Source: a virus. Taken from it: 64,000 nucleotides of DNA. The notes under the pieces were generated by a model. It was not told where the DNA came from. It made no database searches and saw only the letters and a program-made list of their open reading frames with translations. Shown here one piece after another: positions 7,522 through 59,131 of this stretch. The stretch's first letter is position 1. Each line of letters opens with the position of its first letter. The translations under genes were made by a program, and so were the position numbers. Location: IMG/VR virus record IMGVR_UViG_3300045988_183361. One strand, written 5' to 3'.

Positions 7522-8433
7522 TTATTGCTCCTTAATTTCTATATTGATATTTTCAAAACACTTAATTACAAAATAAATTAAACTCATTATGCAGACTATT
7601 AAAATGCATACCTGTAAATATATATTTGTTATAAAAAACGTAAATGGTATTAATGCCACACAGTTTATTAGAATATGATATAAGCTGCTAAGTTTAATAC
7701 CATATTTATCTCTTACAGCACCTAACAAATATCCGCCAAAAGCATATATAGGGAATAAAATAAAATTAAAATGAATTATTCCAAATAAAACTGCTTGGAT
7801 TATATTTGCACATAATTTATTGTTGCTTGCTTTATATGCATAGCCATAAATTATATATCTAAAAGTCAATTCCTCAATAATAGGTGCCACAAAAGTTGCT
7901 ATTATTGTAGATATAATTGTTTTTATTCCTAAACTTCCATAATCAATATCTGATACATTTACAAAATGCATTTGAATTCCTGAAATAAGCTGCAATATTA
8001 CAGAAATTAATATGAAACAAAATGCAAAATTCCAATTTACTACTAATTTATTTTTCATAAACAAATCTTTTTTATAATTGTAAAATGAGCTTTTTATACA
8101 AATAAGGCACATAACAAACATTAATGTATATGTTGATATTGTGTAAATTAATCGAAATCCTTCATAATCTATTTTAGTTGAAATTCCTCCTGCATCATTC
8201 ATATACATATTTAATAGACTGTCTATAAATGTTGCAATAAACATTGAAAATAAAATTATAAAAACAGAAATAATAAATGGAATAAAAATCTTTATATACT
8301 GTTTTGATTTTGAAAAGAAAGAATTACTTTTCATTTTGTTTTTCACCATAAAATCCATATAAGAATTTAAATCATGCTTATTTTTTTTATTTCTTAATTC
8401 CTTAATATTACTGTTATTGTTACTAAGTATCAT
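7522..8433 (-). CDS. CPBP-family (CAAX/Abi) intramembrane metalloprotease
   Basis: multi-TM; IIEELTFRYIIYGY (EExxxR) and FGIIHFNF (FxxxH) motifs. Confidence 0.7.
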   Translation of the reverse strand: MILSNNNSNIKELRNKKNKHDLNSYMDFMVKNKMKSNSFFSKSKQYIKIFIPFIISVFIILFSMFIATFIDSLLNMYMNDAGGISTKIDYEGFRLIYTISTYTLMFVMCLICIKSSFYNYKKDLFMKNKLVVNWNFAFCFILISVILQLISGIQMHFVNVSDIDYGSLGIKTIISTIIATFVAPIIEELTFRYIIYGYAYKASNNKLCANIIQAVLFGIIHFNFILFPIYAFGGYLLGAVRDKYGIKLSSLYHILINCVALIPFTFFITNIYLQVCILIVCIMSLIYFVIKCFENINIEIKEQ

Positions 8434-8545: not shown

Positions 8546-10231
8546 TTAGCATTTGCGTACTATTGAAGGTGCTGACATATCAGGGTTAATGAATTTCTTG
8601 CATAAATGTTCAATTCCGGTTGTTGAATCAAGCCAATATAAATAATCCCCGTCATTATCTACCAGATATTCATTAATAGAATCAAGAACATCGTTTACTT
8701 CGGAAACAGTACATATAAATCTGTATGAAGACTTATTTTTCTTTAAAGGTTTAACAGACTTAACAATAATCTGATATACAGTTTCGTCATCTGAAGATCT
8801 AAAATCATCTACTTGAATTTTTCCTGATAAACATAATTTAGCATCATTAACAAGTAAGTCTCTAATATTTGCATAATCTTTAGAAAAACATACACCATTA
8901 ATAGAACCTGTTTTATCTTCTACCTCAAAAGTTACCCATTCGTATCCATTTCTATCCTTTCTTACAACAAGATTTTTAATTATACCAGATACATCGTTAA
9001 CTTCTGTTGAAATATCAGAAATGGGATCTGTATAAATATTATACTCATCAATTGGATGCCCTGTAATATAAACACCTAACACTTCTTTTTCATCATTTAG
9101 AATCTGACCTAAATCATCTTCTACATAATCAATATCTATATTTTCAAGATCATCTTCTAAGCTTTCTATAACTGTCTTAGCTGAATTGATACGTTTAATT
9201 ATGGAATCCTTAGTTGGCATCTTTTTTGAAGTAACTTGAAAGGAAATATTTTCTTCTGAAATTCTTTCCTTAAACTCATCAAGATCAATATAATCTTCCA
9301 CAAATTCAATAACTTTACTTGCGTTTTCAATAAACTTACTCTTCTCTCTGATTTTCTTAATTGTATCCTGAATTTCTTTCATACAAATCATATCTAATGA
9401 TATCATTGTTCTTGTATAACCAAGGCAATCGAAAGCACCTGCTTTAATTAAGGAACTTAATGCTTCTGCATTAATATTTGTTCGTTTGATAAAATCCTTA
9501 ATATCAGAATATTCTCCATTAACATTTCTATCTTCAATAATTTTAGCTGCTTCTGATCCAACATTCTTAATATTACTCAGACCATACAAAATGTTCCCAT
9601 CTACAACATCACAATGTAAATTTGAAGCATTAATGTCCGGAGGCAATACCTTTACTCCAAAATCAAGGGCATCACTAATATCATCAGCGACTTCATCAAT
9701 CTTATCAGTATGATTTATTACATTTGTAAGATAATAAGCCGGATAATAATACTTAAGAAAAGCAGTCCAATATGATGTAACAGCATAAGCAGTAGCATGT
9801 GACTTATTAAACGCATACTTAGCAAAGTCAACCATCGCATCCCAGATTTTATGAGCAATTTCTTCTGATATTCCATTTGCAATACAACCTGGTACTAATG
9901 CTTCATTTTCTTTTTTAGTATCAGCATTACCATATACAAAAGTGTGTCTTTCAGCATCAATCTCATCCTGATGTTTTTTTGACATAGCTCTACGGACTAA
10001 ATCAGAACGCCCCCATGTATATCCTGCTAAATCACGAACAATCTGCATTACCTGTTCCTGATAAACTATCTGTCCATAAGTAGTTGACAAAATTGGCTCT
10101 AATTGAGGACATAAATATTTAATCTTAGATGCATCCTTTTTACCTTCTATGAAATCAGGTATAAACTTTTCAGGACCAGGACGATATAAAGCATTCATTG
10201 CTATTAAATCTTCAATACCTGTTTTATTCAT
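8546..10231 (-). CDS. dnaE: DNA polymerase III alpha (DnaE-type), C-terminal part as an independent gene
   Basis: NALYRPGP, YGQIVYQEQVMQIV, fingers/OB-like regions; own TGTCATAA box, SD AAAGGAGAAA and ATG. Confidence 0.85.
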   Translation of the reverse strand: MNKTGIEDLIAMNALYRPGPEKFIPDFIEGKKDASKIKYLCPQLEPILSTTYGQIVYQEQVMQIVRDLAGYTWGRSDLVRRAMSKKHQDEIDAERHTFVYGNADTKKENEALVPGCIANGISEEIAHKIWDAMVDFAKYAFNKSHATAYAVTSYWTAFLKYYYPAYYLTNVINHTDKIDEVADDISDALDFGVKVLPPDINASNLHCDVVDGNILYGLSNIKNVGSEAAKIIEDRNVNGEYSDIKDFIKRTNINAEALSSLIKAGAFDCLGYTRTMISLDMICMKEIQDTIKKIREKSKFIENASKVIEFVEDYIDLDEFKERISEENISFQVTSKKMPTKDSIIKRINSAKTVIESLEDDLENIDIDYVEDDLGQILNDEKEVLGVYITGHPIDEYNIYTDPISDISTEVNDVSGIIKNLVVRKDRNGYEWVTFEVEDKTGSINGVCFSKDYANIRDLLVNDAKLCLSGKIQVDDFRSSDDETVYQIIVKSVKPLKKNKSSYRFICTVSEVNDVLDSINEYLVDNDGDYLYWLDSTTGIEHLCKKFINPDMSAPSIVRKC

Positions 10232-15780: not shown

Positions 15781-16539
15781 CTATGAGCATAACTTCTTAA
15801 GGTTATTTCTCATACCGGCTGACTCAAACTGGAAAACATTCTTAGTTCTTCCTTTTGCATATACTTCTTTGTATACCTTATCAGCTTTAGGACCCTCTAA
15901 TGGAATATTCATTACATCAATTACTTCTCCTGTATCTCTCTGAATCATTCTGAGTGTGTCAGTAATAATTGTAAGAGTTTTTAATCCAAGAAAATCCATT
16001 TTTAATAATCCATTAGCTTCGCACTGAATCATGTCCATTTCTGTAGTTTTAATTCCCTTTTTTCCATCTCTAATAGGAATATAATCAGTAACATCATTAC
16101 TATCATAAATAATAACACCTGCGGCATGTTGTGCGTATGTCGTAAGCATACCTTCACAATGAGCTGCAATATTAAGAATAGAAATAGCATCTGGATTACT
16201 ATTATATTCATCCTTTAAGAAATCTAACAAAGAAATGCTGTCCTGAATATTAATGCCTAATTCATCAACCTTATTAGTATCTTTCATGCCAACAATATCT
16301 TCAAAATTAGTTGCTTTAGCAGGCACTTTCTTACGAATCTGATCTCCTAAAGATAAGAATTTCTTTTCATCATCATAAGCTTTCTTTCCATAATATCTTG
16401 CAGCATCTCTGATAGCACCTTTAGCCTGCTGTCTTGATTCTGTAATAATTCCAACAACAGCTTCACTACCATATTTAGCTCTTACATACTCAATTGTCTT
16501 TTCTCTTACTCCAAGAGCAAGATCACTATCGATATCCAA
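15781..16539 (-). CDS. dnaE: DnaE-type Pol III alpha, middle segment (exon 2 / palm-thumb)
   Basis: begins DIDSDLA (the PDxD DID.DF catalytic motif), ends FQFESAGMRNNLKKL; followed by its own terminator. Confidence 0.8.
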   Translation of the reverse strand: MDIDSDLALGVREKTIEYVRAKYGSEAVVGIITESRQQAKGAIRDAARYYGKKAYDDEKKFLSLGDQIRKKVPAKATNFEDIVGMKDTNKVDELGINIQDSISLLDFLKDEYNSNPDAISILNIAAHCEGMLTTYAQHAAGVIIYDSNDVTDYIPIRDGKKGIKTTEMDMIQCEANGLLKMDFLGLKTLTIITDTLRMIQRDTGEVIDVMNIPLEGPKADKVYKEVYAKGRTKNVFQFESAGMRNNLKKLCS

Positions 16540-17477
16540 ATATACCCCTACTTTCGTAGTACTTTAACACTTGTATAAGTGGGATTAGACTATATCTCAA
16601 TATAATATTGTTAATATTATATTTCAACGCACTTCCAACTGTAACCATTCTCAGTTGTACTCCTTAAAAAGGATAGTCGTTACACTTTAAAATAAATAAT
16701 ATTATATACGAACAATTTTTAAGTCATTCCATTTTAAATATTTATGCATTGAGGAATAACTTGCGTTATATTTTTCTTTAGCATATCGAGCTGCTGCTAA
16801 TATGCTTTCAAATCTATCAATTAATATATCTCCTTTATATAATTTACAACACTTATAATTTCTTACAGGAGACATAGTTTTATAACTATCATATAAATTG
16901 TCTTTTCTAGTACACCATTCTAAATTATTCACCTTACAATTTTGTTTATTTTTGTCTTTATGATTAACTTCTGGTAGATTATAAGGATTAGGAATAAAAT
17001 TCATCGCAACTAATCGATGCAATAAAAATTTTTTATTATCTAATCTTATCATCCTGTAATTCTTTTTACTATCTAAAAAAGGTTTAAGTTGTCGAATTTT
17101 CCCTTGTTTTATACTAAAAATCTTTCCATATGAAGTTATGTAATATTCGTGGTGATTTTTAATTTCTACTATTTTTTCACCTTTTTCAAGGAATGATGTA
17201 AAATTGATATAATCTATCATAAATATACACCTCCTTATTTATATAATATTATTTATAATCTTAGCACGGTATCGCCTGCTATCCTTCAATATCTTTTATA
17301 TAAAAATACGAGGACCGTAGGTTCTCTTACGAAGCTGCTTCGTCTATGGGTTAAGCTATATATCCTGTTGTGACACTTTATATAGCAGTCTTATTCAACT
17401 TCTACCGTTAGCACTTAATAATAAAATATTAAGCACACCTCTGAGTTAGAGTCCACGCTGAACGCCCAATATATTTA
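16540..17477 (-). ncRNA. group I intron interrupting dnaE, with HNH homing-endonuclease ORF
   Basis: about 940 nt inserted exactly between ..ERVSMP and DIDSD.. of the DnaE active site; GC-richer structured flanks at 17221-17477 and 16540-16701 around an internal ORF with its own SD. Confidence 0.6.
16702..17220 (-). CDS. HNH homing endonuclease (intron-encoded)
   Basis: NHKDKNKQNCKVNNLEWCTRKDN HNH-type motif; SD AAGGAGGTG; sits inside the intron. Confidence 0.8.
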   Translation of the reverse strand: MIDYINFTSFLEKGEKIVEIKNHHEYYITSYGKIFSIKQGKIRQLKPFLDSKKNYRMIRLDNKKFLLHRLVAMNFIPNPYNLPEVNHKDKNKQNCKVNNLEWCTRKDNLYDSYKTMSPVRNYKCCKLYKGDILIDRFESILAAARYAKEKYNASYSSMHKYLKWNDLKIVRI

Positions 17478-19270
17478 GGCATACTTACTCTTTCTGGATT
17501 TAAGAATCGTTCAAAAATCAGATTATACTTAAATGGATCAATTCCGGTAATACCAAGTAAATATGTAACCAATGAACCGGCACCTGAACCTCTTCCAATG
17601 CCTATTCCAATTCCGGTATTATAATTGTGAGTCTTAACATACTCTTTTGCACCTTCAATTGTTAAAGGTACTTCTGATAGTTTATCCATAGGCACTAATC
17701 CACAAATTCTTCCATATTCCAGAAAGTCCTTTACAATTAAATGATAATCGGCAAAGCCCATCTGAATGATAATATTAAGTTCGTATTCCATTCGTTTCTG
17801 ATGTTCTTCATCCCATCCTTTTCCGTTAGGATATCTCCAATTAATTCCCTTAATTGCTTCAGATCTTAATAATTCGTTTGAGTCCTTGTTCTTATCAAAT
17901 ACTGGATAATGATTAGATTTTTCTGGAATATAAGCACATCTTTTTCCAATTACATTTAAGTTATTGAGTGCTTCTGCAACCTGATCATCTGTTAATATAG
18001 CTGATAAGGCCTGAGCAAGTTCGTAAGGTGTTTTTACATATAACTCTTTATCTGATTCCGACTCACTTATCTTAATAAATCTTAAAAATTTAGCTACATT
18101 ACGCATATCAATACTTCTATCAGAATTATCTGCCATATGTGCATCATTAGCAGCAACTAATGGGATATTATGCTTCCTTGCTAACTGAGCTAACACAGGA
18201 TATGTTCTGCTTTCCATTTCAAGCCCATGATTCTGAACTTCAATGTAATAATTACCTGCTCCAAAAATTTCCTGATAAAAAAGCATTGTCTTTTCTGCTT
18301 CAGACATTAATTCTATTGGGCTTTTCTTTAATGATTCATAATGCTGTATCTTATTTTCATGATTAATATATTCCTCTACTTTAAGACTTATATCCTTTAA
18401 CTCGGCTTTCTTAGCATTAACTAATTTTCTGACATTAGGAATTTTATCTTTAGCTTCCAGAATTTTATTATTTATCTCCTCATATTCGTTAATCAGTTTA
18501 ATAAGCTCTGGATCATCATCATTTAAACACTTTCTTGCATCTCTTAATTTTCTTGAAATCTGTGTTCTTTCTGATTTAAGTTCCTTGGAATCACGAATAT
18601 TAATCAATTCATCTAAATCTGCCGATACCCTTTCAAATTCATCTTTAGCTGAAAGATATTCTTTATCATCAGGACTTATACAATCACGTATAACTAGCTC
18701 GTCTTTTTCAGTAGTATGCTGCTGTGCTTTTCTTTCTCTGTTAATCATTTTATCCAAAACATCATCTGATAATAATTGCAGAGCTGGTGCACCCGAAACG
18801 CAAGCAGAAGTTGCTATTATATCACCGTTAAAGTTATATTTCTTTAAATCTGATATTGTAATAACAGGCTTTCCCATTCTTTTTTCAGAAGCCTTAGAAT
18901 TTAACTTATCAATAATATGCTTGCCTCTTTCTGAAGTGGCTAACATAATCATATGGCCAATCTGCTCATTTATCTTAAATGGTGGCACTTCAATATAAGC
19001 CTCTACGCCATAAATGATATTAAAAGGATGTTCCTCAGTACTTATTTTCTTAGCGTAATCAATACATGTTTGCATTGCTGAAAATGATGCATGGTCCGTA
19101 ACAGCAAATTTAGTATATCCTGCATTAAATGCAGCATCTAAATAACTTTTAGGTTCATCTACGGCATCAAACAAAGAGCCTCCTGGATGGTTATGTTCAC
19201 ACACTGTAACTCCTGACTCAATAACCTTTTTTGTTAATTCTCCAATTTTTACATGTTCAAACATTGACAT
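17429..19270 (-). CDS. dnaE: DnaE-type Pol III alpha, N-terminal PHP + palm segment (exon 1; coding part probably ends near 17478, remainder is intron read-through)
   Basis: PHP motifs [20 protein letters not shown]; palm [34 protein letters not shown]. Confidence 0.85.
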
Positions 19271-21908: not shown

Positions 21909-21917
21909 CTGTCATAT
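21909..21917 (+). promoter_or_regulatory. only plus-orientation copy of CTGTCATAT, inside the TnpB element 48 nt before the tnpB ATG
   Basis: GCTCTGTCATATTAAT, then SD GAAAGG and ATG 21965. Confidence 0.35.
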
Positions 21918-27005: not shown

Positions 27006-27890
27006 TTATTTTGTTTGATAAAGAAGATATGACAGAAAATTATTTACATTAGAATGTGAACTGTTATTTCTTATTACTAAAATATTTCTGATAACAATTA
27101 TGAAAAATATAATACTCATTACGATTAGACAAATATTTTGTAACATAACAGGCATAAAAGAGTACAATACACTACTTGCATTAACTCCAATATGAATTAA
27201 AATAGAGGACAATAAATTATCTGTTTTTATATATACATAGGCTAATATAATACCGAAAATAAATGCATAAGTGCTTTGAATAATATTAAAATGTACTAAT
27301 CCAAAAACGAAAGCTGATATATAAATTGAGCTTACATCTGGTTTCTTAAAGAATTTGTTTTGCTTTATTATTTTTGTAATACCGTATCTAAATATTAATT
27401 CTTCAACAACTGGCGTAATAACACCTGTTATTAAGAGTACTTGAAGCCAATTTCCGGTTACAGCAACATTCATCAAAGAATTATATGAATTAGAAACCAA
27501 ATTATTAGGTAAGGAATCTATTACCACAGAAGCTAAAAAATTCATAATAATGCCTGTTAAAATAAATGTCTTGACATCTTTTAATGATAATTTTGAAATA
27601 AATATGATTGATTTATTAACTTTATATTCTTTAAGCATAACAAACCCAAGTATTATAATATCGGAAACAAATAATGCAGGCATAATTAATTCACTGAGCA
27701 TACTAAGATAACTATATGAAAGTAAATTACCTGTTTCTATACATACATATAAATTATCATACCATTGTGAATCAGAAAACAATTTAAAAATAAATACGCC
27801 CAATGTACATACAATTTGAGTAATAAGAAAGGCAAATACTATTCCAATAATCTTTGTAATTTGTTTAATCATTATTTTGTTGACCTCCAA
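27006..27890 (-). CDS. CPBP-family (CAAX/Abi) intramembrane metalloprotease, second copy
   Basis: VVEELIFRYGITK and FVFGLVHFN motifs; multi-TM. Confidence 0.7.
   Translation of the reverse strand: MEVNKIMIKQITKIIGIVFAFLITQIVCTLGVFIFKLFSDSQWYDNLYVCIETGNLLSYSYLSMLSELIMPALFVSDIIILGFVMLKEYKVNKSIIFISKLSLKDVKTFILTGIIMNFLASVVIDSLPNNLVSNSYNSLMNVAVTGNWLQVLLITGVITPVVEELIFRYGITKIIKQNKFFKKPDVSSIYISAFVFGLVHFNIIQSTYAFIFGIILAYVYIKTDNLLSSILIHIGVNASSVLYSFMPVMLQNICLIVMSIIFFIIVIRNILVIRNNSSHSNVNNFLSYLLYQTK
27028..27041 (-). promoter_or_regulatory. TTTTCTGTCATAT box with extended leader shared with the box at 31011
   Basis: TTTGATAAAGAAGATATGACAGAAAA versus TTTGATAAAGAAAATATGACAGAAAA; upstream of the MTase gene. 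Confidence 0.5.
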
Positions 27891-30977: not shown

Positions 30978-31010
30978 AAAATATCTCCTTTATTATTTTG
31001 ATAAAGAAAA

Positions 31011-31025
31011 TATGACAGAAAAAAT
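31011..31025 (-). promoter_or_regulatory. TTTTTTCTGTCATAT box for the helicase-nuclease gene
   Basis: leader near-identical to that of the MTase gene. Confidence 0.5.
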
Positions 31026-31202: not shown

Positions 31203-32777
31203 TTACTTAGTAGAATTCTTTTCTGACTTAGACACTTTCTCAGGAACATTCTTTACAGTTACCTTAATCTCCGGGTCAACATCTTCTGGAATGCCTGTAA
31301 AGTTCACATTCTTTGTTGTCTTGGCATCATATGTATTAGCCTTCATTACTTCTGTAAGGTCAAAACCAGTTGTTTCCTTAACAGATTCAATTGTCTTTGC
31401 AAGTACTGATGGTACATTACTGCTAAATGAACCTACTCCGGTTTCACCATTACCACTGTCAATAATAGTTACCTTATCAATGGCTTCTAATGGCTTTGCA
31501 ATAGCTCCTGCCATCTCTGGAAGTACTTTGATAATCATTTCAGTCATGGCAGCCTTACCATACTTAGCCATTGCATCTGCTTTCTTCTCCATAGCTTCAG
31601 CTTCAGCTAATCCTTTTGCCTTAATACTTTCAGCATCAGCAACACCTTTTGCCTTAATACTCTCTGCTTCTGCAAAGCCCTGTGCCTTTACTGCTTCAGC
31701 TTCCTGTTCCTTAGCAAATCTGTCTGCTTCTGCCTGTGATTTCTTAGCTTCAGCCTGCTTCTGAATTTCAAACTGCTTTGCTTCTGCTTCCTTCTGTCTC
31801 TGATAAAGTTCTGCATCTGCCTTTTGCTGTGCTGCATACTTTTCAGCTTCGGCCTGCTTACGGATATCAGCATCAAGTGTTTTTTCCTTAACAGTGATTT
31901 CCTTTTCTCTTAATTCAATTTCCTTTTCCTGCTTTGCAATATTAGCATTGGCAGTAGTGATTTCAATTGTCTTTCTCTGTTCCTGCTGCTGGATTTCATA
32001 TGCCGCATCAGCTTCAGCCTTCTTAACATCTGCTGCTCTCTTTAATTCCTGCTTCTTAATCTCAAGTTCATTATTTCTTTCTGCAATAGCTGTCTCAGCT
32101 TCAATTCTTGCATCATTAGCCTGCTTTTCAGCATTAGCCTTTGCAACTGCAATATCTCTTTCTGATTCTGCTCTTGATATCTGTGCTGACTTACTGATAC
32201 TTACAACCCTGTCAATACCAAGGTTTTCAATAACATTACCTTCATCTGTAACATTCTGAACATTAAAGCTTACAATTTCAAGACCCATTCTTTCCATATC
32301 AGGAGCAGCATTCTCCTGTACCTTTTCAGCAAATAACTTTCTGTCCTGTACAATATCCTCAAGCTTCATCTGTCCTATAATTTCACGGACATTACCTTCA
32401 AGTACATCTACAACTGATTCTCTGATATAATCTGAATTTTTATTAAGGAAGTTACTTGCAGCCTTTCCAAGCATTTCAGGTGATGAACCAATCTTAATCT
32501 TTACAGCAGAATCAATATTAACATTAATATACTCATTTGTTGGTACTGATTCCTTTGTCTTTACATCAACAGAAATCATCTTTAAATCAAGCTTATCTAC
32601 TCTCTGTAAAAATGGTATCTTAAGTGATGACCTTCCGATAACATACTTAGGTGTCTTTCTAAGTCCTGATACAATAAGTGCCTTGTCTGTCGGAGCCTTA
32701 ATATAACTTGCAAATAATAATGCAATTAATACTACAACCACCGCTACTACAATTCCAATCGTTACTTCAATTCCCAT
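31203..32777 (-). CDS. flotillin / SPFH (band 7) domain protein with long coiled-coil
   Basis: N-terminal TM, SPFH-like region, extended A/E/K/Q-rich coiled-coil typical of FloT/YuaG. Confidence 0.8.
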   Translation of the reverse strand: MGIEVTIGIVVAVVVVLIALLFASYIKAPTDKALIVSGLRKTPKYVIGRSSLKIPFLQRVDKLDLKMISVDVKTKESVPTNEYINVNIDSAVKIKIGSSPEMLGKAASNFLNKNSDYIRESVVDVLEGNVREIIGQMKLEDIVQDRKLFAEKVQENAAPDMERMGLEIVSFNVQNVTDEGNVIENLGIDRVVSISKSAQISRAESERDIAVAKANAEKQANDARIEAETAIAERNNELEIKKQELKRAADVKKAEADAAYEIQQQEQRKTIEITTANANIAKQEKEIELREKEITVKEKTLDADIRKQAEAEKYAAQQKADAELYQRQKEAEAKQFEIQKQAEAKKSQAEADRFAKEQEAEAVKAQGFAEAESIKAKGVADAESIKAKGLAEAEAMEKKADAMAKYGKAAMTEMIIKVLPEMAGAIAKPLEAIDKVTIIDSGNGETGVGSFSSNVPSVLAKTIESVKETTGFDLTEVMKANTYDAKTTKNVNFTGIPEDVDPEIKVTVKNVPEKVSKSEKNSTK

Positions 32778-35513: not shown

Positions 35514-38048
35514 CTATAATTCTAATTCGTCATCAAATATTCTATTTTCCTTATGTTCTACTTTAGATAAATTCTTTAAATCTAATTCATCTGCTGCCTT
35601 TACTGTTACTTTTTCTAATTCCTTATTTGCAACAGGATTATCTAATTTTTCAGATTTACCGCAAAATTCATTAGAAATATAATCAAGGTCATACGATGAT
35701 ACTACCTTTGCATTCTCTTTTAGACCTTCTTTTTGAACATCTAGTGGATATAATGAGAACACTGTATCAGCCTCTTTTATATCAGTTGTAAGCTCTCCGC
35801 AGCCTTCGGCATATAAATCAAATAATTGTTTCATATCTGGAATAGCGTTATTTAATATATATCCTAATTCAACTGATGTCTGTTTATTTAAATCATTTGA
35901 AACAACATTCTGCCCTAAATTTAAACTGCCTACATGATCAATCCAATATGTCGCATCGTTTTCTACATCATAAACACATGGAGTTGCCATGGTTGATGCT
36001 GCATTTATTTTAATTGGATGCTCAATCTGTGATATTTCGAACTGTTTTCCAAGGAAAATAACAGATCGTTCATCTTTAGTAAAATCAATAACCTCATCAT
36101 AATCATCATATTCAGCATCATGATCCCTATGACATGCTTTTCTTGTATCCATATACTCACCTAAAGAACCCTCTTTTTCCATTTCAATAAATTTAAGTCC
36201 TTCAGCTTTATTAAATGGCACTGAGAATCCATGAATTTCTACAACAGCATATTTAATACCGGCATCTTTCATAGCTTTTTTATCTAATAAAACCATTTCA
36301 GTAGCACCATTTGGGGCATCTGTGTAATCGCCACTATGTACACCAAATTTTCCGGATTTTAAATTATAATAATACAGGGTATCAACTGTTATGTTTTTAT
36401 CATTATAAAACTTAACACTTAAATCAATGTCCCCTCTTACTTCATGTCCATTATTATCCTTATAATTTTTCCAGTATATTCCATAAGCTAATAAGTTTTT
36501 ATTCTGATCACCTGATAATCTACTATATGGAGGAATAATATTACCTGCAGAACAATCTCTCATATCTCTTAAAGGAATTTTAATATCTTCTAATTTAGGG
36601 TCAATATATACTTTACCCAACTGTTTTGTATCTGAAATGTTATGAACAATAGTCTGTCTAATAATATTTCTTATATTATTCATTTGAGCATCTGAAAGAT
36701 GTAACGGTTTATTGTCTGAAACTAATAATTTTCCATTTTTATTCTTATAAATTCTATTCTCATGTTCTTTATTTCTTAATTCAAACGAATTATACATAGT
36801 AAGCATTGACTGCACAGGAACATTACAATACATAATTTTGTTTGCAATTGAAGTTAAAGCTAAACCATTGCCTTCTTTTGCTGCTTCATCAACATACTGA
36901 ATATAATGCTGAACAAAATACCCAGGGAAATTATCCGCAAGCTTATTAAATTTTTGTACATTTTCAAATGATGAAACTTTAATAAGATTATCTATCGCTT
37001 TTTCAAACTGTCTTGGGACTGGAATAATATCCTTACCATTTTCATCCTTTTTTATTTTATTAGCAAGATTATCAAATGCCTTTACTACTCTTTCAGGACC
37101 AGTATGTGAATCAATTCTATTCATTAATCTCTTATATAATCCTTCATCCTTCCAGATATCATAGTAAAGATTTGGACAGTTATTTAACATATCCTTTATT
37201 AACCTTTTGTCTGAATTGGTTAACTTATATTTAACTTTGCCGTTCTTATTTGAAACTGTTTTCTTAGTATTTAATGATATATCATTAACTTTGTTTCCAA
37301 AATTCTGATTTGAAAGTTCTGCTGCAAATCTTAATACATCTTTAGAATCCTTTATCATATTAACTGCTGAATTTCTTGCACCCAGTTTATATAATAGACT
37401 AGCTGTTTTAACTAAATTTTCTTTACTCTGATAAGGTATCTCGGTTGAAACAATTTGGTCAATTTTAAATGGATATTCACGAAAATATGTTTCAACATCT
37501 TTCAAGTTTTCTTCATTCATACCTTTTGGCGCATGAATTCTGTTTATCATTAATTCATCTAATTCTTTTATATTTGTATTATTAATTACCTTTAATTTGT
37601 CAGGGAAGTTTTCCAATAATGGGAGCCTGTCAACTTTTTCCTCAGTTACAGAATCTCTTATCATTTGTGCTATCGTTTTACATCTTTCATCATCTGTCTG
37701 GGAAAATGTATAATATAATAACGAATTAATATATAATGCTTCCTCAGATTTATCCATGACTTCTTCCGGGAAATTAGGATAGAATAACTCAACAGAATTA
37801 AATTCATCAATCCCTTTATATTCTTTAATAATATCTGTCAAATCATTATATACCTCACATATTTCCTGTGCAGGCAATTTAGCTAATGCAGATATAGCAT
37901 CCGTGCTTAATGTATAACCATAACTTTCCAAATTTCTATTGACTGATAAAGCCATATTAATGTTTTCATATTCAATATCAATGGGATTTTGTGGGATTGA
38001 AAACTTAGATAGATTGTTAAATAAAATAGAATTAATAGATTTGTTCAT
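35514..38048 (-). CDS. large hypothetical protein with C-terminal TerD-like domain
   Basis: RGDIDLSVKFYNDKN...GVHSGDYTDAPNGATEMVLLD resembles the TerD Ca-binding domain; N-terminal 500 aa unassigned. Confidence 0.45.
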   Translation of the reverse strand: MNKSINSILFNNLSKFSIPQNPIDIEYENINMALSVNRNLESYGYTLSTDAISALAKLPAQEICEVYNDLTDIIKEYKGIDEFNSVELFYPNFPEEVMDKSEEALYINSLLYYTFSQTDDERCKTIAQMIRDSVTEEKVDRLPLLENFPDKLKVINNTNIKELDELMINRIHAPKGMNEENLKDVETYFREYPFKIDQIVSTEIPYQSKENLVKTASLLYKLGARNSAVNMIKDSKDVLRFAAELSNQNFGNKVNDISLNTKKTVSNKNGKVKYKLTNSDKRLIKDMLNNCPNLYYDIWKDEGLYKRLMNRIDSHTGPERVVKAFDNLANKIKKDENGKDIIPVPRQFEKAIDNLIKVSSFENVQKFNKLADNFPGYFVQHYIQYVDEAAKEGNGLALTSIANKIMYCNVPVQSMLTMYNSFELRNKEHENRIYKNKNGKLLVSDNKPLHLSDAQMNNIRNIIRQTIVHNISDTKQLGKVYIDPKLEDIKIPLRDMRDCSAGNIIPPYSRLSGDQNKNLLAYGIYWKNYKDNNGHEVRGDIDLSVKFYNDKNITVDTLYYYNLKSGKFGVHSGDYTDAPNGATEMVLLDKKAMKDAGIKYAVVEIHGFSVPFNKAEGLKFIEMEKEGSLGEYMDTRKACHRDHDAEYDDYDEVIDFTKDERSVIFLGKQFEISQIEHPIKINAASTMATPCVYDVENDATYWIDHVGSLNLGQNVVSNDLNKQTSVELGYILNNAIPDMKQLFDLYAEGCGELTTDIKEADTVFSLYPLDVQKEGLKENAKVVSSYDLDYISNEFCGKSEKLDNPVANKELEKVTVKAADELDLKNLSKVEHKENRIFDDELEL

Positions 38049-39666: not shown

Positions 39667-39674
39667 ATATGACA
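39667..39674 (-). promoter_or_regulatory. CTGTCATAT box for recA
   Basis: 39 nt upstream of ATG 39628. Confidence 0.45.
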
Positions 39675-39718
39675 GTTTTTGTTGAACAATTTTTTACATA
39701 AATTAATTTAATTTATAT

Positions 39719-52847: not shown

Positions 52848-53495
52848 TTAAGATTTTTTATTTTTAGCTTTTTTAATTATGCTCCAATCCTCTTCTGTGA
52901 AATATGGATACATATCATAGACTGCAAATTCTCCATCTTTTTTAGAAATTGTATATTCTAAAACAATATGAAGTCCATGACAGTCAAAAGGAATATCATA
53001 ATTTGTACCTTTTACAATTCCTTTTCCTATAACCGTATTAGATACTATATCTATAACTAAACGATTATGTCTTCTGTCGTTGTAATAAATATCTCTATCC
53101 TCACACCAGTTCTGAATTTTAGAAATAATAGAAGTATTATTTGAAGCAATTAAAACTCTCTCTAATGCTTCAGATGCACTTTCTAATGAATCAAACCATG
53201 TAGGATGGAAGGTACCATTCTTAGCGCCTTTAATTCCTTTCTTTTCTTTTGTAGCTTCAGAAATTTTATTTATAGCCCATGAAATTTCTGGAGCTATATG
53301 TTGTAGCACATGAGGAGTATGTTCCTCAACATAATCATTTGCTCCTGATCTGGTTTCAACCAAATCATTAGCTTCGAAATTGAAAAGATATTCTTCTGCA
53401 TCATAAAATTTTTCGATATATGATGCTACATTAAAAAAATCCTTTTTATATGTGCCAGCCTTTTTGTCTGACATAATTTCATTTAATTCTGCCAT
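52848..53495 (-). CDS. hypothetical protein
   Basis: start moved to ATG 53493-53495 with SD GAAAGGAACG. Confidence 0.5.
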   Translation of the reverse strand: MAELNEIMSDKKAGTYKKDFFNVASYIEKFYDAEEYLFNFEANDLVETRSGANDYVEEHTPHVLQHIAPEISWAINKISEATKEKKGIKGAKNGTFHPTWFDSLESASEALERVLIASNNTSIISKIQNWCEDRDIYYNDRRHNRLVIDIVSNTVIGKGIVKGTNYDIPFDCHGLHIVLEYTISKKDGEFAVYDMYPYFTEEDWSIIKKAKNKKS

Positions 53496-53527
53496 AGTGC
53501 AGCGTTCCTTTCTTCGCAATGTGCGAA

Positions 53528-53573
53528 CAAAAAAAGCTACCCTAAAAAGTCTATAAAGACATTTTAAGGTAGC
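53528..53573 (-). terminator. intrinsic terminator after 53604..53984
   Basis: 17-bp imperfect hairpin GCTACCTTAAAATGTCT...AGACTTTTTAGGGTAGC followed by U7 on minus strand. Confidence 0.6.
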
Positions 53574-53603
53574 TAAACAAATAGTTCTAATTTTCAAAAT
53601 TAT

Positions 53604-53984
53604 TTAATCTGGATTATATGGATATTCTATAAAGAATTCATATTCCGGATTGTCGCTCATTAAGCGGGCAATATTTTCTGCTTTGGATACATAATATGTA
53701 TGTCTGTTATCCAACCCATCCTTTTCATTAAGCATTTCGCACTTAGCTCGTGTAACAATCTTATGAAACTGATTCCCGGATAAATCTACAATTATTTCGT
53801 TATCTCTATAGAAATAATCAATATTCTTTTTTTCAAGAATTTTGTTAATATAAGGAATTAATTCTTCTTTTGCCTTCTTAAAATGTCTCATATATAAGAC
53901 TCCCTTCTTGGAGTTATTCTCCATTAAATTTATTGATAAAAAATATATGACAGAAAAAACAGTATATGTTAAAGATTTATCCAA
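53604..53984 (-). CDS. hypothetical protein
   Basis: ORF track. Confidence 0.5.
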
Positions 53985-56310
53985 ACTGTTGTCTTTTTAT
54001 TAAAATATTATTATATATTTCATCCCAGTATTTATTTATAGCATCAATTTCTTGTTGATCAGTTAATGCGTTCTTATCGATAATAACATCATCAAGACTT
54101 TTTATAACAGTATTAGCAGTTTTATAATCTGAAATATTAGTATTCTCAGCTTCTTTTAAAGCATCATATGCTTTTTTGTAACAAAAACTGGCCTTTTCAT
54201 AATTAGGAAAATCGATTTGAAAAAAATCTTTTTTACCAGAATTATAATTACATTTTTTCCCTTCCCAGTCAATATAATGCTCATAAATAGTTTCAGGTTT
54301 CTCAAATTCCTTATTATCTAAATTCTGGTGCAAATATTCATTAAACTGCTTCCATATTTCTCCACATATTGCTGAACCATTATCAAAATTTTTAGGAATA
54401 TCATATCCGGTCCATATACATGTTGTGTAATATGGTGTATATGCACATAGCCAAGAGTCCTTGTTATCATTCGTTGTTCCAGTTTTTCCTGCACAAATCT
54501 GATTATCTATTTGATAATTTTTGACGTATCCTTCTGTAAAATTTGAAATTAAACAATCTGTCATCATATAAGCGGTGCCTTTTTTATATACTTGAATATC
54601 TTCTTTATTTTGATATATTTCTTCATTTTGACGCAACATATGTTTGATGCATGTATTATTATTGTATTTACCATTATTAGCTAATGCATTGTATGCTTTA
54701 GTCATGTTTTCTACTGTTACACCATTTGTAAAACCACCTATGGCAATTGCAGCATTATTATTATCTTCATATGAAATATTATAAAAGTGCATTTTATTTA
54801 AATACTCTAAACAATTATTTATTCCAACATTCATTAATGTTTTAACAGCCGTTGTATTGACTGATTGTAATAAAGCTGTTCTTACTGAAATATTGCCTCT
54901 GTAATATCCATCATGATTTTTAGGCTGATATTTACCCTCAAGTGGAGAATCCAAAATCATAGATGATGGATGATAGTCTAAAATATCAAAAGCCGGAGCA
55001 TAATCTAATATTGGTTTAATGGAAGAGCCTGGTTGTCTAGGAGATTGATATGCTCTATTTATATATTCATTATCTTCTTGTCCACCTATAATTGCTCTAA
55101 CATATCCAGTTTCATTATCAATACACATGGATGATGTTTGAAGAAGATGCCGCCCATCCTCGGATAAGCTGTTATCATATTGTGATAAAACATTTTTTGA
55201 AATTTGTAATAGCTCAAGCTGCTTATCTTTATCTATTGAAGTATATATCCTGTATCCTCCAGTTAATATTTCTTCTTTGTACTTAGAGTATATTTTATTA
55301 TATTGATTAATATAATCTTGCTCATCTTCTGAAGAATCAAAAAGGTATTTAAAATTAAATCCATTTATTTCCATAAGATATTCAATAGAACATTTAAGTG
55401 TATATGAAAATTCATAAGATGTTGGTAAATCAGATGTTTCTTTATATAAAATTAAATCAAGAGGATCTTCTAATGCTTCATTGTATTGTTTTTCTGTAAT
55501 TATTTTCTGATTATACATTGTATTAAGGACTTGATTTCTTTTACATATTGCTAATTCATAATTTGTTTCAGGATTATATTTTGTAGGGGCATTTGAAATA
55601 CCTATTAACATTGCGGCCTGAGATATTGTTACATCAGATGCATCACATCCAAAATAATATTTACAAGCTGCCTGAATTCCGTAACAATTGCTGCCGTAGA
55701 AATTAGAGTTTAAATACATTTCAAGTATTTGTTCTTTAGAATATGACTTTTCCATTTCAAGTGATGCTATCATTTCAGTAAGTTTTCTATCTATTGTTTT
55801 GTCTGAATTTTTTATAACAATATTTTTTACAACTTGTTGTGTGATTGTACTGCCGCCCTGAGTTATTTTCCCTTTATTCTTTATATAAGCCAAAGAAGCT
55901 CGTAACAATGCTTTAGCATCAATACCTTTATGAATATAGAAATTCTTATCTTCCACAGCAATATATCCTTGTATTATATAATCACTGACATCGCTGATAT
56001 TAACATATTCATAAGAGCCGTTAATATTAGCTGCCATTAATGTGCCATCATCATAATAAAAATATGTATTCAGTTCTTTATTAAATTCATTTTGGTTCAT
56101 ATTTTGTAATGACTCATATGCATTTTCCTGTGCCAATTTGAATTTACTGTAAAATTTAATATAAAATACTGATAATGATATTAAAGATAATAATATGACT
56201 ATCATAATAATCAATATAAAAATTTTAAATATGGTTAAAAGATGATTTTTCTGTTTTTTTAGTGGAATATTTTTATCATCATTATAAAGTGGTTGTTTTT
56301 TAGAACTCAT
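53977..56310 (-). CDS. class A penicillin-binding protein (GT51 transglycosylase + transpeptidase)
   Basis: N-terminal [14 protein letters not shown] (GT51), [11 protein letters not shown] (SxxK), KTGTT (KTG). Confidence 0.8.
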
Positions 56311-56344
56311 AATTTTTCTCCTTTATATTTATTTACACAATAAA

Positions 56345-56358
56345 TATGACAGAGAATA
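56345..56358 (-). promoter_or_regulatory. TTCTCTGTCATAT box for the PBP gene
   Basis: preceded by terminator AAAGCTCTCACCTTAATGGTGGGAGCTTT + U-run. Confidence 0.5.
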
Positions 56359-56588
56359 ACAAAAAGCTCCCACCATTAAGGTGAGAGCTTTAATCAAAGT
56401 TGCTAGTAGAATTGTAAAATTCTATTAAAGTGTATTTTTACAACAAAATTACCGGCTTTAACAAAAGTGCTAGTCTTTGAGGAGGCATATATGTATGCCT
56501 AATATATACCGACAATATTTTATCACATTGTAAATTATAATACAATATTGATTTAATTATTATATGACAGATTTTTGACTGCAAATTT

Positions 56589-57722
56589 TTACATAATTTT
56601 ATTTTTGCCTGTTCTTTTAGCTTTATATAAATTTTTATCTGCTGCATCAAATAAATCATGAACGGTATTATTTTTTTTATATTCTGTTATTCCTCCAGAG
56701 AAAGTAAATTGCTGCGGAATATTCTCATATTTAATATTGTTGAATTTAATTCTGATATCGTTAATTATATTATACGCCTCAGTATATTCATAATCTGCAA
56801 ATAATATTCCGAATTCTTCACCTCCATATCTGGCGACAAAAATATTTGATTGGTTAATATTTTGAAGTTCCTTAGCTAAATTAATTAAAACAGTATTTCC
56901 AAATTCATGTCCATATGTATCGTTAACTGATTTAAAATCATCTATATCTATTATACAAAAATAAAGTTTTTTCTTATATGATATCCATTTCTTTGTTGTA
57001 TTAAAAAGAGACCTATAATTATCTAATCGAGTTAATCCATCTTGTGAAATTTCTTTTAATAATTGCGCATTTCTATTTTCAGATAAAACCAGTTTAAGTT
57101 CTTTTTCTTTCTCATATTTAATAACAAGTCTCGAATAAATATATGCAAATATTGTTATGATACATGATAAAAACATATATATTAAATAATTTGATGGTAA
57201 CTTATTTAATTCAGAGATTGATGATAATGAAATTGTAATAATTTCAAATTGACTTATCAAAAATAATTGCCAATTAACCTTGTTACTACCATATACAATA
57301 CACATAAAAATTGGGCAGGCTATTAATGTATATAATACCGGATAATTATAATGAATGATAATTGAAACCACTATAATTAAAGTTAAAATATACAAAGGCA
57401 TGGCTTCATATATTTCTGGTATAATATTATCTTGATATTTTCTTATGATTTGTCTACCGGTAAACCATATTATTAAATTAGATGTAGTAGGTGTAAATAC
57501 ATTCAATATAATATAAGATAATATATTTATTGTTTGTTTTTCTATTATTATATGTATTGGTATAAATAATAATTCAAAAACAAATATTGTGATTATTATA
57601 AGAAGGTTAATAGCCATTATTTTATTTTGAAATTTATTATACAAATATGCGTATAAACTGGTTTGTTTTTCTGTATGCTCTATTGTATTATCTTGTATTT
57701 TAATTTTTTCTATTGTTTTCAT
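56589..57722 (-). CDS. membrane-anchored GGDEF diguanylate cyclase
   Basis: 5-6 TM N-terminus; RYGGEEFGILF active-site motif. Confidence 0.8.
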   Translation of the reverse strand: MKTIEKIKIQDNTIEHTEKQTSLYAYLYNKFQNKIMAINLLIIITIFVFELLFIPIHIIIEKQTINILSYIILNVFTPTTSNLIIWFTGRQIIRKYQDNIIPEIYEAMPLYILTLIIVVSIIIHYNYPVLYTLIACPIFMCIVYGSNKVNWQLFLISQFEIITISLSSISELNKLPSNYLIYMFLSCIITIFAYIYSRLVIKYEKEKELKLVLSENRNAQLLKEISQDGLTRLDNYRSLFNTTKKWISYKKKLYFCIIDIDDFKSVNDTYGHEFGNTVLINLAKELQNINQSNIFVARYGGEEFGILFADYEYTEAYNIINDIRIKFNNIKYENIPQQFTFSGGITEYKKNNTVHDLFDAADKNLYKAKRTGKNKIM

Positions 57723-57862: not shown

Positions 57863-59077
57863 TTACTCTGTTGCATCATAAAATTCTTTCTCTGGATACA
57901 ATTCGTTTAAATTTTCTGCTAAATCTATTTCTTCAAGTAAAGCATTATAATTCATTTTAATTTTTTCAGATTTAATTAAACTTAACATAGCATCTGCAAT
58001 TACAGGATCAAATTGAGTACCTTTACCCTTTTCAAGCTCATTAACTACAATTATTGAATCTAAATGTTTCCTATATACTCTGTCACTTGTCATTGCGTCA
58101 AAGGCATCTGCTACAGAAATAATTCTTGCAATATAAGGTATTTGTTCTCCCTTTAAGCCATCTGGGTATCCTTTTCCGTCATATCTTTCATGATGATATT
58201 TTGCTCCTAAATCAATGTCCTTAAGCATTGACATATCTTTTAAGATATTTCCGCCTATTACTGTGTGGTTCTTCATTACTTGGTACTCTTCATTTGTTAA
58301 TTTTCCTGGTTTGTTTAATATGCTATCCGGAATTCCTAGTTTTCCTATATCATGCAATAGTGCTATTGAATGAATATCTTCAATCTCATTTTTATTCATT
58401 CCTAATTTATATGCTAATAAGGCTGTATAATCTGCTACTCTGGTTGAATGGCCTTTGGTGTAATTATCTCTGGCATCGATAATATTTGCTATAGTTGTAA
58501 CTGTTTGGAGAGACATTTTATTAATTTGTTCTATTTGATTTATTATTGTTTGTGTATTTTGCAAATTTAGGTCTGTATTTCTTTTATAAAACTTTGAAAC
58601 AATATATGCTGCTGCAAAGCATAAAATAATTATTGCAAGTTGAATCTCCATGTCTTTGCCACCTGATTTATCAATTTTATTATATGTCTTAATAAATATT
58701 GCTGTAATATTCAACACTGTCGAAAATAACCCGGTTACTATAATTAAAGTTGGATCATAATATAAAATTAAAAGCAGGATAATTGGGAATATATAAGTAA
58801 AACATAAAACAGTATTTCCTGTAAATAAGGTAAATGTATACATTATTAAAAACGAGAATGTTACAAAATATTTTAAAAATAGCCAGTTTTTATTATAAAT
58901 AAAAACCAACCACCCTGTTAAATTCGGGATACTAATTAATATAGCAAATATTGCAAAATATGGTGGTGATATAGCATGTTTTAACATTTCACCAAAATAA
59001 ATGCCTAATAGTGTTATTGTTATTACTGACCAACCACATAAAAGTGATGTATTTAATCTTTCTTGTTCTCTATCCAT
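57863..59077 (-). CDS. membrane-anchored HD-GYP c-di-GMP phosphodiesterase
   Basis: multi-TM N-terminus; LHDIGK (HD) and HHERYDGKGYP (GYP) motifs. Confidence 0.8.
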   Translation of the reverse strand: MDREQERLNTSLLCGWSVITITLLGIYFGEMLKHAISPPYFAIFAILISIPNLTGWLVFIYNKNWLFLKYFVTFSFLIMYTFTLFTGNTVLCFTYIFPIILLLILYYDPTLIIVTGLFSTVLNITAIFIKTYNKIDKSGGKDMEIQLAIIILCFAAAYIVSKFYKRNTDLNLQNTQTIINQIEQINKMSLQTVTTIANIIDARDNYTKGHSTRVADYTALLAYKLGMNKNEIEDIHSIALLHDIGKLGIPDSILNKPGKLTNEEYQVMKNHTVIGGNILKDMSMLKDIDLGAKYHHERYDGKGYPDGLKGEQIPYIARIISVADAFDAMTSDRVYRKHLDSIIVVNELEKGKGTQFDPVIADAMLSLIKSEKIKMNYNALLEEIDLAENLNELYPEKEFYDATE

Positions 59078-59117
59078 AGGTCCTCCTTATAGTCAAAAAA
59101 AGTTATATTAATATATA

Positions 59118-59131
59118 TATGACAGATAATA
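59118..59131 (-). promoter_or_regulatory. CTGTCATATAT box for the HD-GYP gene (probably also GGDEF)
   Basis: 40 nt upstream of ATG 59077, SD AAGGAGG; no box between HD-GYP and GGDEF. Confidence 0.5.

Follow-up and report, generated by a model that had tools for sequence, protein, structure and literature searches.

A predicted bifunctional class A penicillin-binding protein on a probable giant conjugative plasmid-like element of the human gut

Class A penicillin-binding proteins (PBPs) belong to the core machinery of wall synthesis and are targeted by antibiotics, which raises the question of why a stretch of DNA filed as viral should encode one. The stretch is 64,000 nucleotides (nt) of IMG/VR record IMGVR_UViG_3300045988_183361 (the whole of it is hereafter called the window), on whose minus strand an open reading frame (ORF) with an ATG start, running from 56310 to 53977, encodes a protein of 777 amino acids (aa). 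A preliminary description of this locus had proposed a complete bifunctional PBP on a phage-like element, a synthase and not a lysin, and had named a recent capture from the host as something to be checked. We consider it rather probable that the gene encodes a functional, membrane-anchored class A PBP and that it is a long-resident, selected gene of giant, low-GC, conjugative plasmid-like elements of human-gut Firmicutes.

The protein, its domains and its predicted fold

Pfam recognized two domains in the coding sequence (53977..56310, minus strand), both scoring far over the curated cut-offs. The Transgly model (PF00912, GT51; E = 1.2e-56) covers residues 98-265, a GT51 peptidoglycan glycosyltransferase domain encoded at 55516..56019 (-), and the Transpeptidase model (PF00905; E = 1.8e-22) covers residues 396-627, a DD-transpeptidase (penicillin-binding) domain encoded at 54430..55125 (-). 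GT51 motifs 1-5 are all in place, namely EDxxFxxHxG at residue 120 with the catalytic E120, GGSTITQQ at 152, RKLTE (RKxxE) at 175 with the catalytic E179, KxxILxxYxN at 192 and KRNQVL (KRxxVL) at 257, while the transpeptidase domain holds S429-S-I-K432 (SxxK), S483-V-N485 (SxN) and K609-T-G. The only hydrophobic segment, at residues ~24-52, follows a cytoplasmic tail of residues 1-23, and a Shine-Dalgarno ribosome-binding site, AAAGGAG (56318..56324, -), stands 7 nt 5′ of the ATG. The N-terminal membrane anchor, the GT51 motif (GGSTITQQ) and the SxxK and KTG motifs of the preliminary description were all found as proposed, along with the other GT51 motifs and the SxN motif that it had suggested looking for. 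Across 48 aligned relatives, element-borne and plasmid-borne proteins included, the catalytic motifs are unchanged.

An AlphaFold2 model built with 26 homologues, none of them plasmid-derived (mean pLDDT 86.7, pTM 0.74), showed a long helix at residues 17-69 and, over the last ~100 residues (675-776), a predicted beta-hairpin and three-helix bundle (pLDDT 82-93). This C-terminal extension, which we delimit from the pLDDT and the lengths of relatives as residues 675-777 (53980..54288, -), stands where chromosomal homologues of 1040-1170 aa have long C-terminal tails. Upon comparing the model with the PDB by Foldseek, we obtained top matches that were all class A PBPs (E from 1e-36 to 1e-29), among them Staphylococcus aureus PBP2 (3dwk/2olv/2olu), Acinetobacter baumannii PBP1a, Escherichia coli PBP1b and Haemophilus influenzae PBP1a; the entries 3dwk/2olv/2olu, 3udf and 3vma gave E values of 1e-36 to 1e-31. 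A sequence search of the PDB concurred. The best NCBIfam model was that of the PBP1A subfamily, TIGR02074 PBP_1a_fam, which aligned over positions 3-535 of its 535 with 476 bits. By anchor, motifs, domains and fold, the identity of the protein as a complete bifunctional class A PBP was confirmed at the level of sequence and predicted structure. With the catalytic Glu and Ser intact, the protein is predicted to be a synthase and not a lysin, and its best homology is to class A PBPs, not to a lytic transglycosylase or a beta-lactamase-fold esterase.

The chromosomal class A PBPs, such as S. aureus PBP2, Bacillus subtilis PBP1/PonA and those of Lachnospiraceae type, share its domain order, motifs and fold. 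Unlike them, the window PBP is shorter, ends in a compact helical domain, is plasmid-borne, has an element-specific promoter motif and belongs to a separate clade.

Age of the gene and nature of its carrier

Its nearest relatives (P0002-P0007; 48-66% identity) are found on element-like contigs of up to ~310 kb and group with the window PBP as that separate clade. A sister clade at 41-43% identity, which includes P0016 and P0017, likewise occurs in element-like contexts; in one member, a GGDEF-EAL gene immediately precedes the PBP, and in another, a split NrdD and a release factor are close by. Only with P0009 (1041 aa, 41-46% identical) is a clearly chromosomal homologue reached, its neighbours being his genes, alaS, mecA and a gene for a D-Ala-D-Ala carboxypeptidase. 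The PBP gene has a GC content of 27.4%, with GC at third codon positions (GC3) and codon usage typical of the element; the locus of the chromosomal homologue has 35% GC. Compared with a 99% variant, the gene shows 16 synonymous and 6 non-synonymous codon differences, and comparison with a 62% relative gave a pN of 0.25 and a pS of 0.76, values that show purifying selection. Because the chromosomal relatives are distant and the gene has its own clade, an element-like composition, purifying selection, co-inherited neighbours and the element's promoter-like motif (for the last two, see below), we conclude that it is not a recent capture, and that suggestion of the preliminary description is thereby answered in the negative. 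Two other proposals were rejected: block capture of GGDEF-EAL and PBP genes from a chromosome, the cyclic diguanylate (c-di-GMP) proteins of L020 and of the chromosomal L016 being only ~31% identical, and monophyly of the plasmid-borne PBPs, those of pCLJ and pJFP838A lying outside the window clade.

What kind of molecule carries the gene? The window has 28-29% GC, nearly all of its genes are on the minus strand and its GC skew is strongly negative throughout, so that strand bias and skew look like those of one replichore. Genes for replication and recombination encode the DNA polymerase III (PolIII) alpha subunit (split), RecA, RecJ, two UvrD/PcrA helicases, a DnaG-type primase and a 5′-3′ exonuclease; the other recognizable products include a sigma-70 factor, an N6/N4 methyltransferase, flotillin, two CAAX proteases, Lar, and IscB and TnpB elements. 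To more than half of the ORFs no family could be assigned, and no tRNA was found in the 64 kb. The identical PBP occurs in 301 blocks of a public assembly collection, always in the same neighbourhood, on human gut contigs of up to 463 kb. Hundreds of human gut assemblies contain proteins of the element; those other than the PBP lie on contigs of 586-831 kb, with maxima of 698-831 kb, but never on contigs of more than 1 Mb. Among GTDB species representatives the element was not found, the sole match being an unrelated Brachyspira PBP (27%), and a nucleotide search of isolated phages and PLSDB plasmids gave no match save in the region with the insertion sequence (IS) and TnpB (a fecal contig, 98%).

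Conjugation genes lie just past the right end of the window in every variant. They comprise a Mob_Pre (MobV) relaxase of 401 aa at ~2-3 kb beyond the end and a 982-aa VirD4-type coupling protein, in the company of a NERD protein (L055-L057, 1-7000). The coupling protein has T4SS-DNA_transf, TrwB_AAD_bind and TraG-D_C domains, its best matches among plasmids, which come from conjugative Firmicutes plasmids, carry the annotation "VirD4-like, CD1115 family", and 1191 of the 1844 plasmids that match it are predicted to be conjugative; in one variant it is split into two ORFs. Relatives of the coupling protein with 73% and 70% identity share contigs of 295 kb and 150 kb with diverged PBPs. The element with the 73% relative (L058, 2658-16423) has, in this order, PrgI (VirB3-like), an 856-aa VirB4-like ATPase, two more ORFs, the type IV coupling protein (T4CP), the relaxase and a PARP-like gene, and a ParA gene is present in another relative, L013. 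Given these conjugation genes of the element and of its relative, and the ParA of L013, we take the carrier to be a giant conjugative plasmid-like element, not a phage.

A jumbo or mega phage would give the PBP a different meaning, as an auxiliary protein that keeps the wall intact in a long infection or blocks superinfection. Parts of the gene content would suit such a phage: several window genes match PHROG families (PolIII alpha, helicase, sigma factor and HNH), small orphan ORFs are many, PolIII alpha is split and IscB/HNH elements are present. A 95-kb fragment is moreover held in IMG/VR, and a few phage records have PBP-like genes, e.g., Microcystis phage MaAM05 (29.6%). However, PHROG and Pfam searches of the window and ~20 kb of flanks returned no capsid, portal, terminase or tail family, and thus no virion or packaging family in ~95 kb, while a relaxase and a T4CP adjoin, a sister element has the ATPase and the PrgI of a type IV secretion system (T4SS) and a relative has ParA. 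Contigs of 812-831 kb also exceed the largest reported phage genome, 735 kb (PMC7162821), and the closest architectural matches are plasmids. In the huge-phage literature that we searched, PBPs are not mentioned, and searches for phage-encoded PBPs gave nothing relevant. We regard a phage as an unlikely carrier. The "phage-like element" of the preliminary description accordingly held as to mobility and found no support as to phage character, with no virion genes in ~95 kb and conjugation genes adjoining. Jug phages, a specific candidate, have similar GC (27-30%) and size but carry TerL, MCP and RpoC and have Bacteroides hosts (PMC12880540); they were ruled out by Shine-Dalgarno usage, gene content and host.

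The host is suggested by three observations: a Shine-Dalgarno motif precedes 43 of the 59 window genes (73%), one copy of a PolIII fragment was binned as Lachnospira pectinoschiza, and near-identical TnpA copies are labelled Lachnospira sp. These are suggestive only of a Firmicutes host, probably Lachnospira.

Several points weigh against a functional PBP on a conjugative plasmid-like element of Firmicutes. The element measures at least 460 kb, of which the search for virion genes spans ~95 kb, and such genes are possible elsewhere; IMG/VR does list the 95-kb fragment as a predicted virus; and the very large contigs could include mis-assemblies. A full T4SS was seen in the relative L058 only, whereas here the end of a 1260-aa ORF is visible, and the host call consists of two bin or cluster labels together with Shine-Dalgarno usage. 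As for the protein, its 476 bits against TIGR02074 fall just short of the curated cut-off of 508.75 bits, a shortfall that appears to reflect divergence and not a lost domain.

Elsewhere in the window, an IscB-like protein (RRXRR+HNH, 419 aa; 2327-3586, -) adjoins a HEARO RNA (RF02033; 3665-3878, -; 109.8 bits), the two making up a pair of IscB/omega-RNA type. PolIII alpha is spread over at least three ORFs (17429-19270, 15781-16539 and 8546-10231, all -), of which the first two form a single 849-aa ORF in other variants; because the gene is uninterrupted there, we take the ~900-bp insert between them (with a 172-aa ORF, 16702-17220) to be polymorphic and intron- or homing-endonuclease-like. 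The C-terminal finger/HHH/OB part of PolIII alpha is a gene of its own 5.5 kb away, as on pCLJ. An IS200/IS605 unit with TnpA and TnpB (62487-63743 and 63757-63996, both -) is absent from variants L003 and L006, one variant has an inserted trio of tyrosine recombinases with DUF6262 (L056, 11603-16045), and another has an IS3 element. Since these insertions differ between variants, the element is being actively remodelled by IS and recombinase elements.

Neighbouring genes, a promoter-like motif and resemblance to known elements

Upstream of the PBP gene lie two genes for membrane-bound c-di-GMP enzymes, each with several transmembrane (TM) segments: a diguanylate cyclase with a GGDEF domain (56589..57722, -; 377 aa, GGEEF intact) and an HD-GYP phosphodiesterase (57863..59077, -; 404 aa, HD and GYP motifs intact). 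The relative L013 keeps the gene order HD-GYP, GGDEF, PBP at identities to the window of 58, 57 and 62%, and because the order is kept in a lineage so diverged, we take the three genes to be co-inherited. Farther upstream, a gene for a 428-aa protein with a PARP catalytic domain (59452..60738, -) forms a landmark of synteny between the PBP module and the conjugation genes and is the most conserved gene of the neighbourhood, with 77% identity to its L013 orthologue. This PARP-like gene was found on more than 1000 contigs, and giant plasmids of Bacillus, Paenibacillus, Butyrivibrio, Variovorax and Vibrio repeatedly carry homologues annotated as WGR/PARP.

The PBP gene shares with many genes of the element an invariant nine-base motif, CTGTCATAT, which occurs in 28 copies in the window against 0.82 expected. 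All but two of the copies (26/28) are on the coding strand, mostly 25-45 nt ahead of start codons and often just past a terminator, and the genes so preceded include those for the PBP, RecA, a helicase, the methyltransferase and the HD-GYP protein. Sites of CTGTCATAT, with an optional leading T, are found for instance at 39667-39675 and 31010-31018 (-) and at 21909-21917 (+); the site of the HD-GYP gene is at 59117-59125 (-), and that of the PBP gene, 33 nt 5′ of its start codon, is at 56344..56352 (-). Some sites have a TATGTAAA box ~20 nt farther upstream. Two relatives, L013 (62%) and L015 (52%), keep the motif 5′ of their PBPs; it is absent 5′ of the PBPs in the other PBP-bearing groups of IMG/VR. 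Judging by its placement, CTGTCATAT is probably the -10 region of an element-specific promoter, and the sigma-70-family factor that the element itself encodes (6082-7110) possibly recognizes it.

Between the GGDEF and PBP genes, an intrinsic-terminator-like hairpin (56363..56391, -), with a 12-bp stem, 6 G-C pairs and a following T-run, divides the promoter-like motif of the PBP from an upstream unit. The latter is a structured, untranslated stretch of ~170 nt that follows a second CTGTCATAT (56562-56570) and extends up to the terminator (56392..56570, -). Its fold has a z-score of -4.9, and the L013 counterpart (9789-9960), of the same layout, one of -5.4; the unit may be a small RNA or a leader. 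A riboswitch for c-di-GMP or another ligand in the 278-nt gap 5′ of the PBP was considered and dropped, as Rfam gave no match there at gathering or permissive thresholds.

Directly 3′ of the PBP gene are two small orphan genes (52848-53597 and 53604-53891, both -). The second encodes 95 aa and has its own promoter motif at 53945-53953, and the product of the first has a weak, sub-threshold match to the bacterial CdiA-CT RNase A domain (E = 4.6e-5). Elsewhere in the window, further envelope-related genes encode flotillin/SPFH (31203-32777, -) and the CAAX (Rce1-like) proteases (27006-27890 and 7522-8433, both -).

A PBP on a giant Gram-positive plasmid is a situation already known, from pCLJ, pJFP838A, Bt407 and the Inocles. 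By tblastn, PLSDB yielded class A PBP homologues on 626 plasmid records; the best are on Clostridium botulinum/sporogenes toxin plasmids of 240-274 kb (38% identity over residues 53-742), followed by Clostridium perfringens pJFP838A (404 kb) and then by Bacillus thuringiensis Bt407 (502 kb). In IMG/VR, 33 loci encode PBPs, several of them on human-microbiome contigs of 143-295 kb with cellular-type neighbours.

The Inocles (Kiguchi et al., Nat Commun 2025; PMC12340149) are oral extrachromosomal elements of 245-395 kb with 24-32% GC and Streptococcus hosts, "rare in feces". A protein made up of TM, transglycosylase and transpeptidase parts is conserved in all Inocle taxa, and its gene is one of only two annotated envelope genes so kept (PMC12340149). 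The window element shares this PBP architecture and, like the Inocles, is a giant, low-GC, IS-bearing, replichore-organized extrachromosomal element of human-associated Firmicutes; both carry PolIII alpha, an exonuclease, a helicase and a sigma factor (RpoS-like in Inocles). It differs in coming from human gut metagenomes, with Lachnospira labels, whereas the Inocles are oral and Streptococcus-borne, and in having conjugation genes and larger contigs (up to ~0.8 Mb). The Inocle marker InoC (~454 aa, with the PF13814 replication-relaxation domain) had no match in the accessible region of the element. The resemblance, drawn by comparison with the published description only, is strong. A separate group of IMG/VR contigs (L036-L041 and L049) could be Inocle-type elements filed as viruses: these human-microbiome contigs of 171-244 kb have ~33.5% GC and encode an 812-aa class A PBP (31% identity), with a Rib/Ig-like surface protein, a pentapeptide-repeat protein, a non-specific endonuclease and a ClpB-like ATPase as neighbours.

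The PBPs of the pCLJ/pCLK-type plasmids and of pJFP838A have 858-917 aa and all motifs and align with up to 89% of the window PBP at 38-39% identity. The pCLJ gene adjoins FtsE/FtsX-like genes, and a sigma-70 factor, an HD-GYP protein and an "OB-fold" PolIII-alpha fragment are encoded near it; the immediate neighbours of the pJFP838A gene encode an LCP protein, signal peptidase I and an exonuclease, and the 52% relative of the window PBP likewise has LCP and exonuclease genes nearby. pJFP838A further has homologues of the window's DnaE and of an 844-aa protein. Distant homologues of the latter, an orphan encoded at 35514-38048 (-) and belonging to phrog_33734, are annotated "TerD family" or "RING finger" and occur on pJFP838A, a Bacillus mycoides plasmid and Variovorax, Vibrio and Streptomyces megaplasmids; the PBP-bearing IMG/VR group of 31% identity has homologues as well. 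Unlike the window element, pCLJ and pJFP838A have PBPs outside its clade, other hosts and sizes and no HD-GYP/GGDEF/PBP trio; nor do they share the CTGTCATAT promoter motif. No paper tying either plasmid to a PBP was found in the literature searched.

The Bt407 plasmid NC_018878.1 (502 kb) shares with the window a PBP (37.9%), DnaE (31.8%) and a PARP/WGR protein (29.5%), and plasmids of Jeotgalibacillus (603 kb) and Aneurinibacillus (722 kb) share the PBP and the PARP-like gene. These giant Firmicutes plasmids differ from the window element in their low identities, as judged from few genes, and in their Bacillales hosts. Two further candidates were discarded. The Hodor megaplasmids (PMC12934698) are, like the window element, giant, conjugative and from the human gut, and carry surface modules, but they differ in GC (44-47%) and in relaxase type (MOBH). 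The 627-kb megaplasmid of Eubacterium eligens (NC_012780), likewise a giant element of the human gut, is not similar to the window, and its genes are metabolic ones. No description of the window element was found in the literature searched, and it may be a very prevalent giant extrachromosomal element of the gut that has hitherto gone undescribed.

Possible roles of the protein

What might such an element gain from its own PBP? The gene would be transcribed from the element's own type of promoter, as the motif ahead of it suggests, and its product would insert into the host membrane with the catalytic domains outside. There, the GT51 domain (E120/E179) would polymerize lipid II into glycan strands and the transpeptidase domain (S429) would cross-link stem peptides, so that the protein would be one more peptidoglycan synthase in the cell, supplementing or redirecting the wall synthesis of the host. 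It would form part of an envelope-directed cargo beside the membrane-bound c-di-GMP enzymes. The activity and expression of the PBP, the identity of its host and the benefit to host or element are things that we infer. Remodelling of the host peptidoglycan seems to us the most plausible general role; the simplest reading of why the gene is kept would be extra or repair-type wall synthesis that aids the host, and hence the plasmid, which fits the recurring link with other envelope genes on giant Gram-positive plasmids. Tolerance to beta-lactams, a role in conjugation, and the exclusion of phages or of plasmids are conceivable functions that lack support. The roles offered in the preliminary description (superinfection exclusion, effects on sporulation or biofilms, beta-lactam tolerance) are speculation.

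An antibiotic-related role would make the PBP a mobile, low-affinity enzyme, the class A analogue of mecA/PBP2a. On SCCmec, mecA/PBP2a is an extra PBP brought by a mobile element and acting beside the host enzymes; PBP2a is a class B protein, transpeptidase only, of low affinity and under recent antibiotic selection. The parallel has some appeal in that a second, diverged PBP is delivered here by a conjugative element, one that is highly prevalent in the human gut, where exposure to antibiotics is likely. The window PBP is instead a bifunctional class A protein that is old in its lineage: its active-site motifs are canonical, the gene is conserved across diverged elements, unlike what recent antibiotic selection would leave, and no resistance genes are nearby. 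We hold beta-lactam tolerance to be improbable as the reason for the gene.

We give still less credence to a service to conjugation, by which the PBP would re-synthesize or reinforce peptidoglycan around the T4SS channel or the mating junction. The relaxase, T4CP and T4SS genes are indeed ~10-15 kb away from the PBP module, with synteny kept through the PARP-like gene. Yet the PBPs of pCLJ and pJFP838A adjoin FtsEX-like, LCP and signal peptidase genes and not T4SS genes, and the known Gram-positive T4SSs use peptidoglycan hydrolases and not synthases. The Inocles, too, keep their PBP though described without conjugation genes (PMC12340149).

That the sequence is the chromosome of an unbinned bacterium with a small genome, and the PBP its housekeeping synthase, is very unlikely. 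RecA, RecJ, PcrA/UvrD, the DnaG-like primase, the sigma-70 factor and PolIII alpha are genes of cellular type, and contigs reach 0.8 Mb; such a chromosome would, however, have to lack tRNAs over 64 kb, have no family for more than half of its ORFs and be absent from GTDB representatives despite hundreds of samples, and it would have to accommodate the conjugation genes, the split PolIII alpha and the IS and IscB elements. A decaying relic without function, to which the TIGR02074 score under the cut-off could point, is strongly disfavoured and hardly credible for an intact ORF that is identical in hundreds of samples, keeps all motifs, is under purifying selection and has its own promoter-like motif and ribosome-binding site.

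Beyond the functional, long-resident PBP that we favour, a broader proposal can be made tentatively and with considerable doubt: the PBP, HD-GYP and GGDEF proteins may constitute a conserved module for control of envelope and lifestyle in gut conjugative elements of 0.5-0.8 Mb, very prevalent and apparently undescribed, which would reshape the wall and the c-di-GMP signalling of Lachnospiraceae through a programme of their own, built on the sigma factor and CTGTCATAT. If that were true, the elements would be the gut counterpart of the oral Inocles, or a sister group to them.

For the bacteria concerned, it follows that an abundant commensal lineage may owe part of its wall synthesis to plasmid genes that can be transferred. 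Possible consequences extend to wall architecture, to tolerance of stress or beta-lactams, and to host-microbe signalling via peptidoglycan fragments. With the present gut example added to the Inocles, the pCLJ-type plasmids, pJFP838A and Bt407, a pattern is emerging in which giant Gram-positive plasmids carry a PBP of their own.

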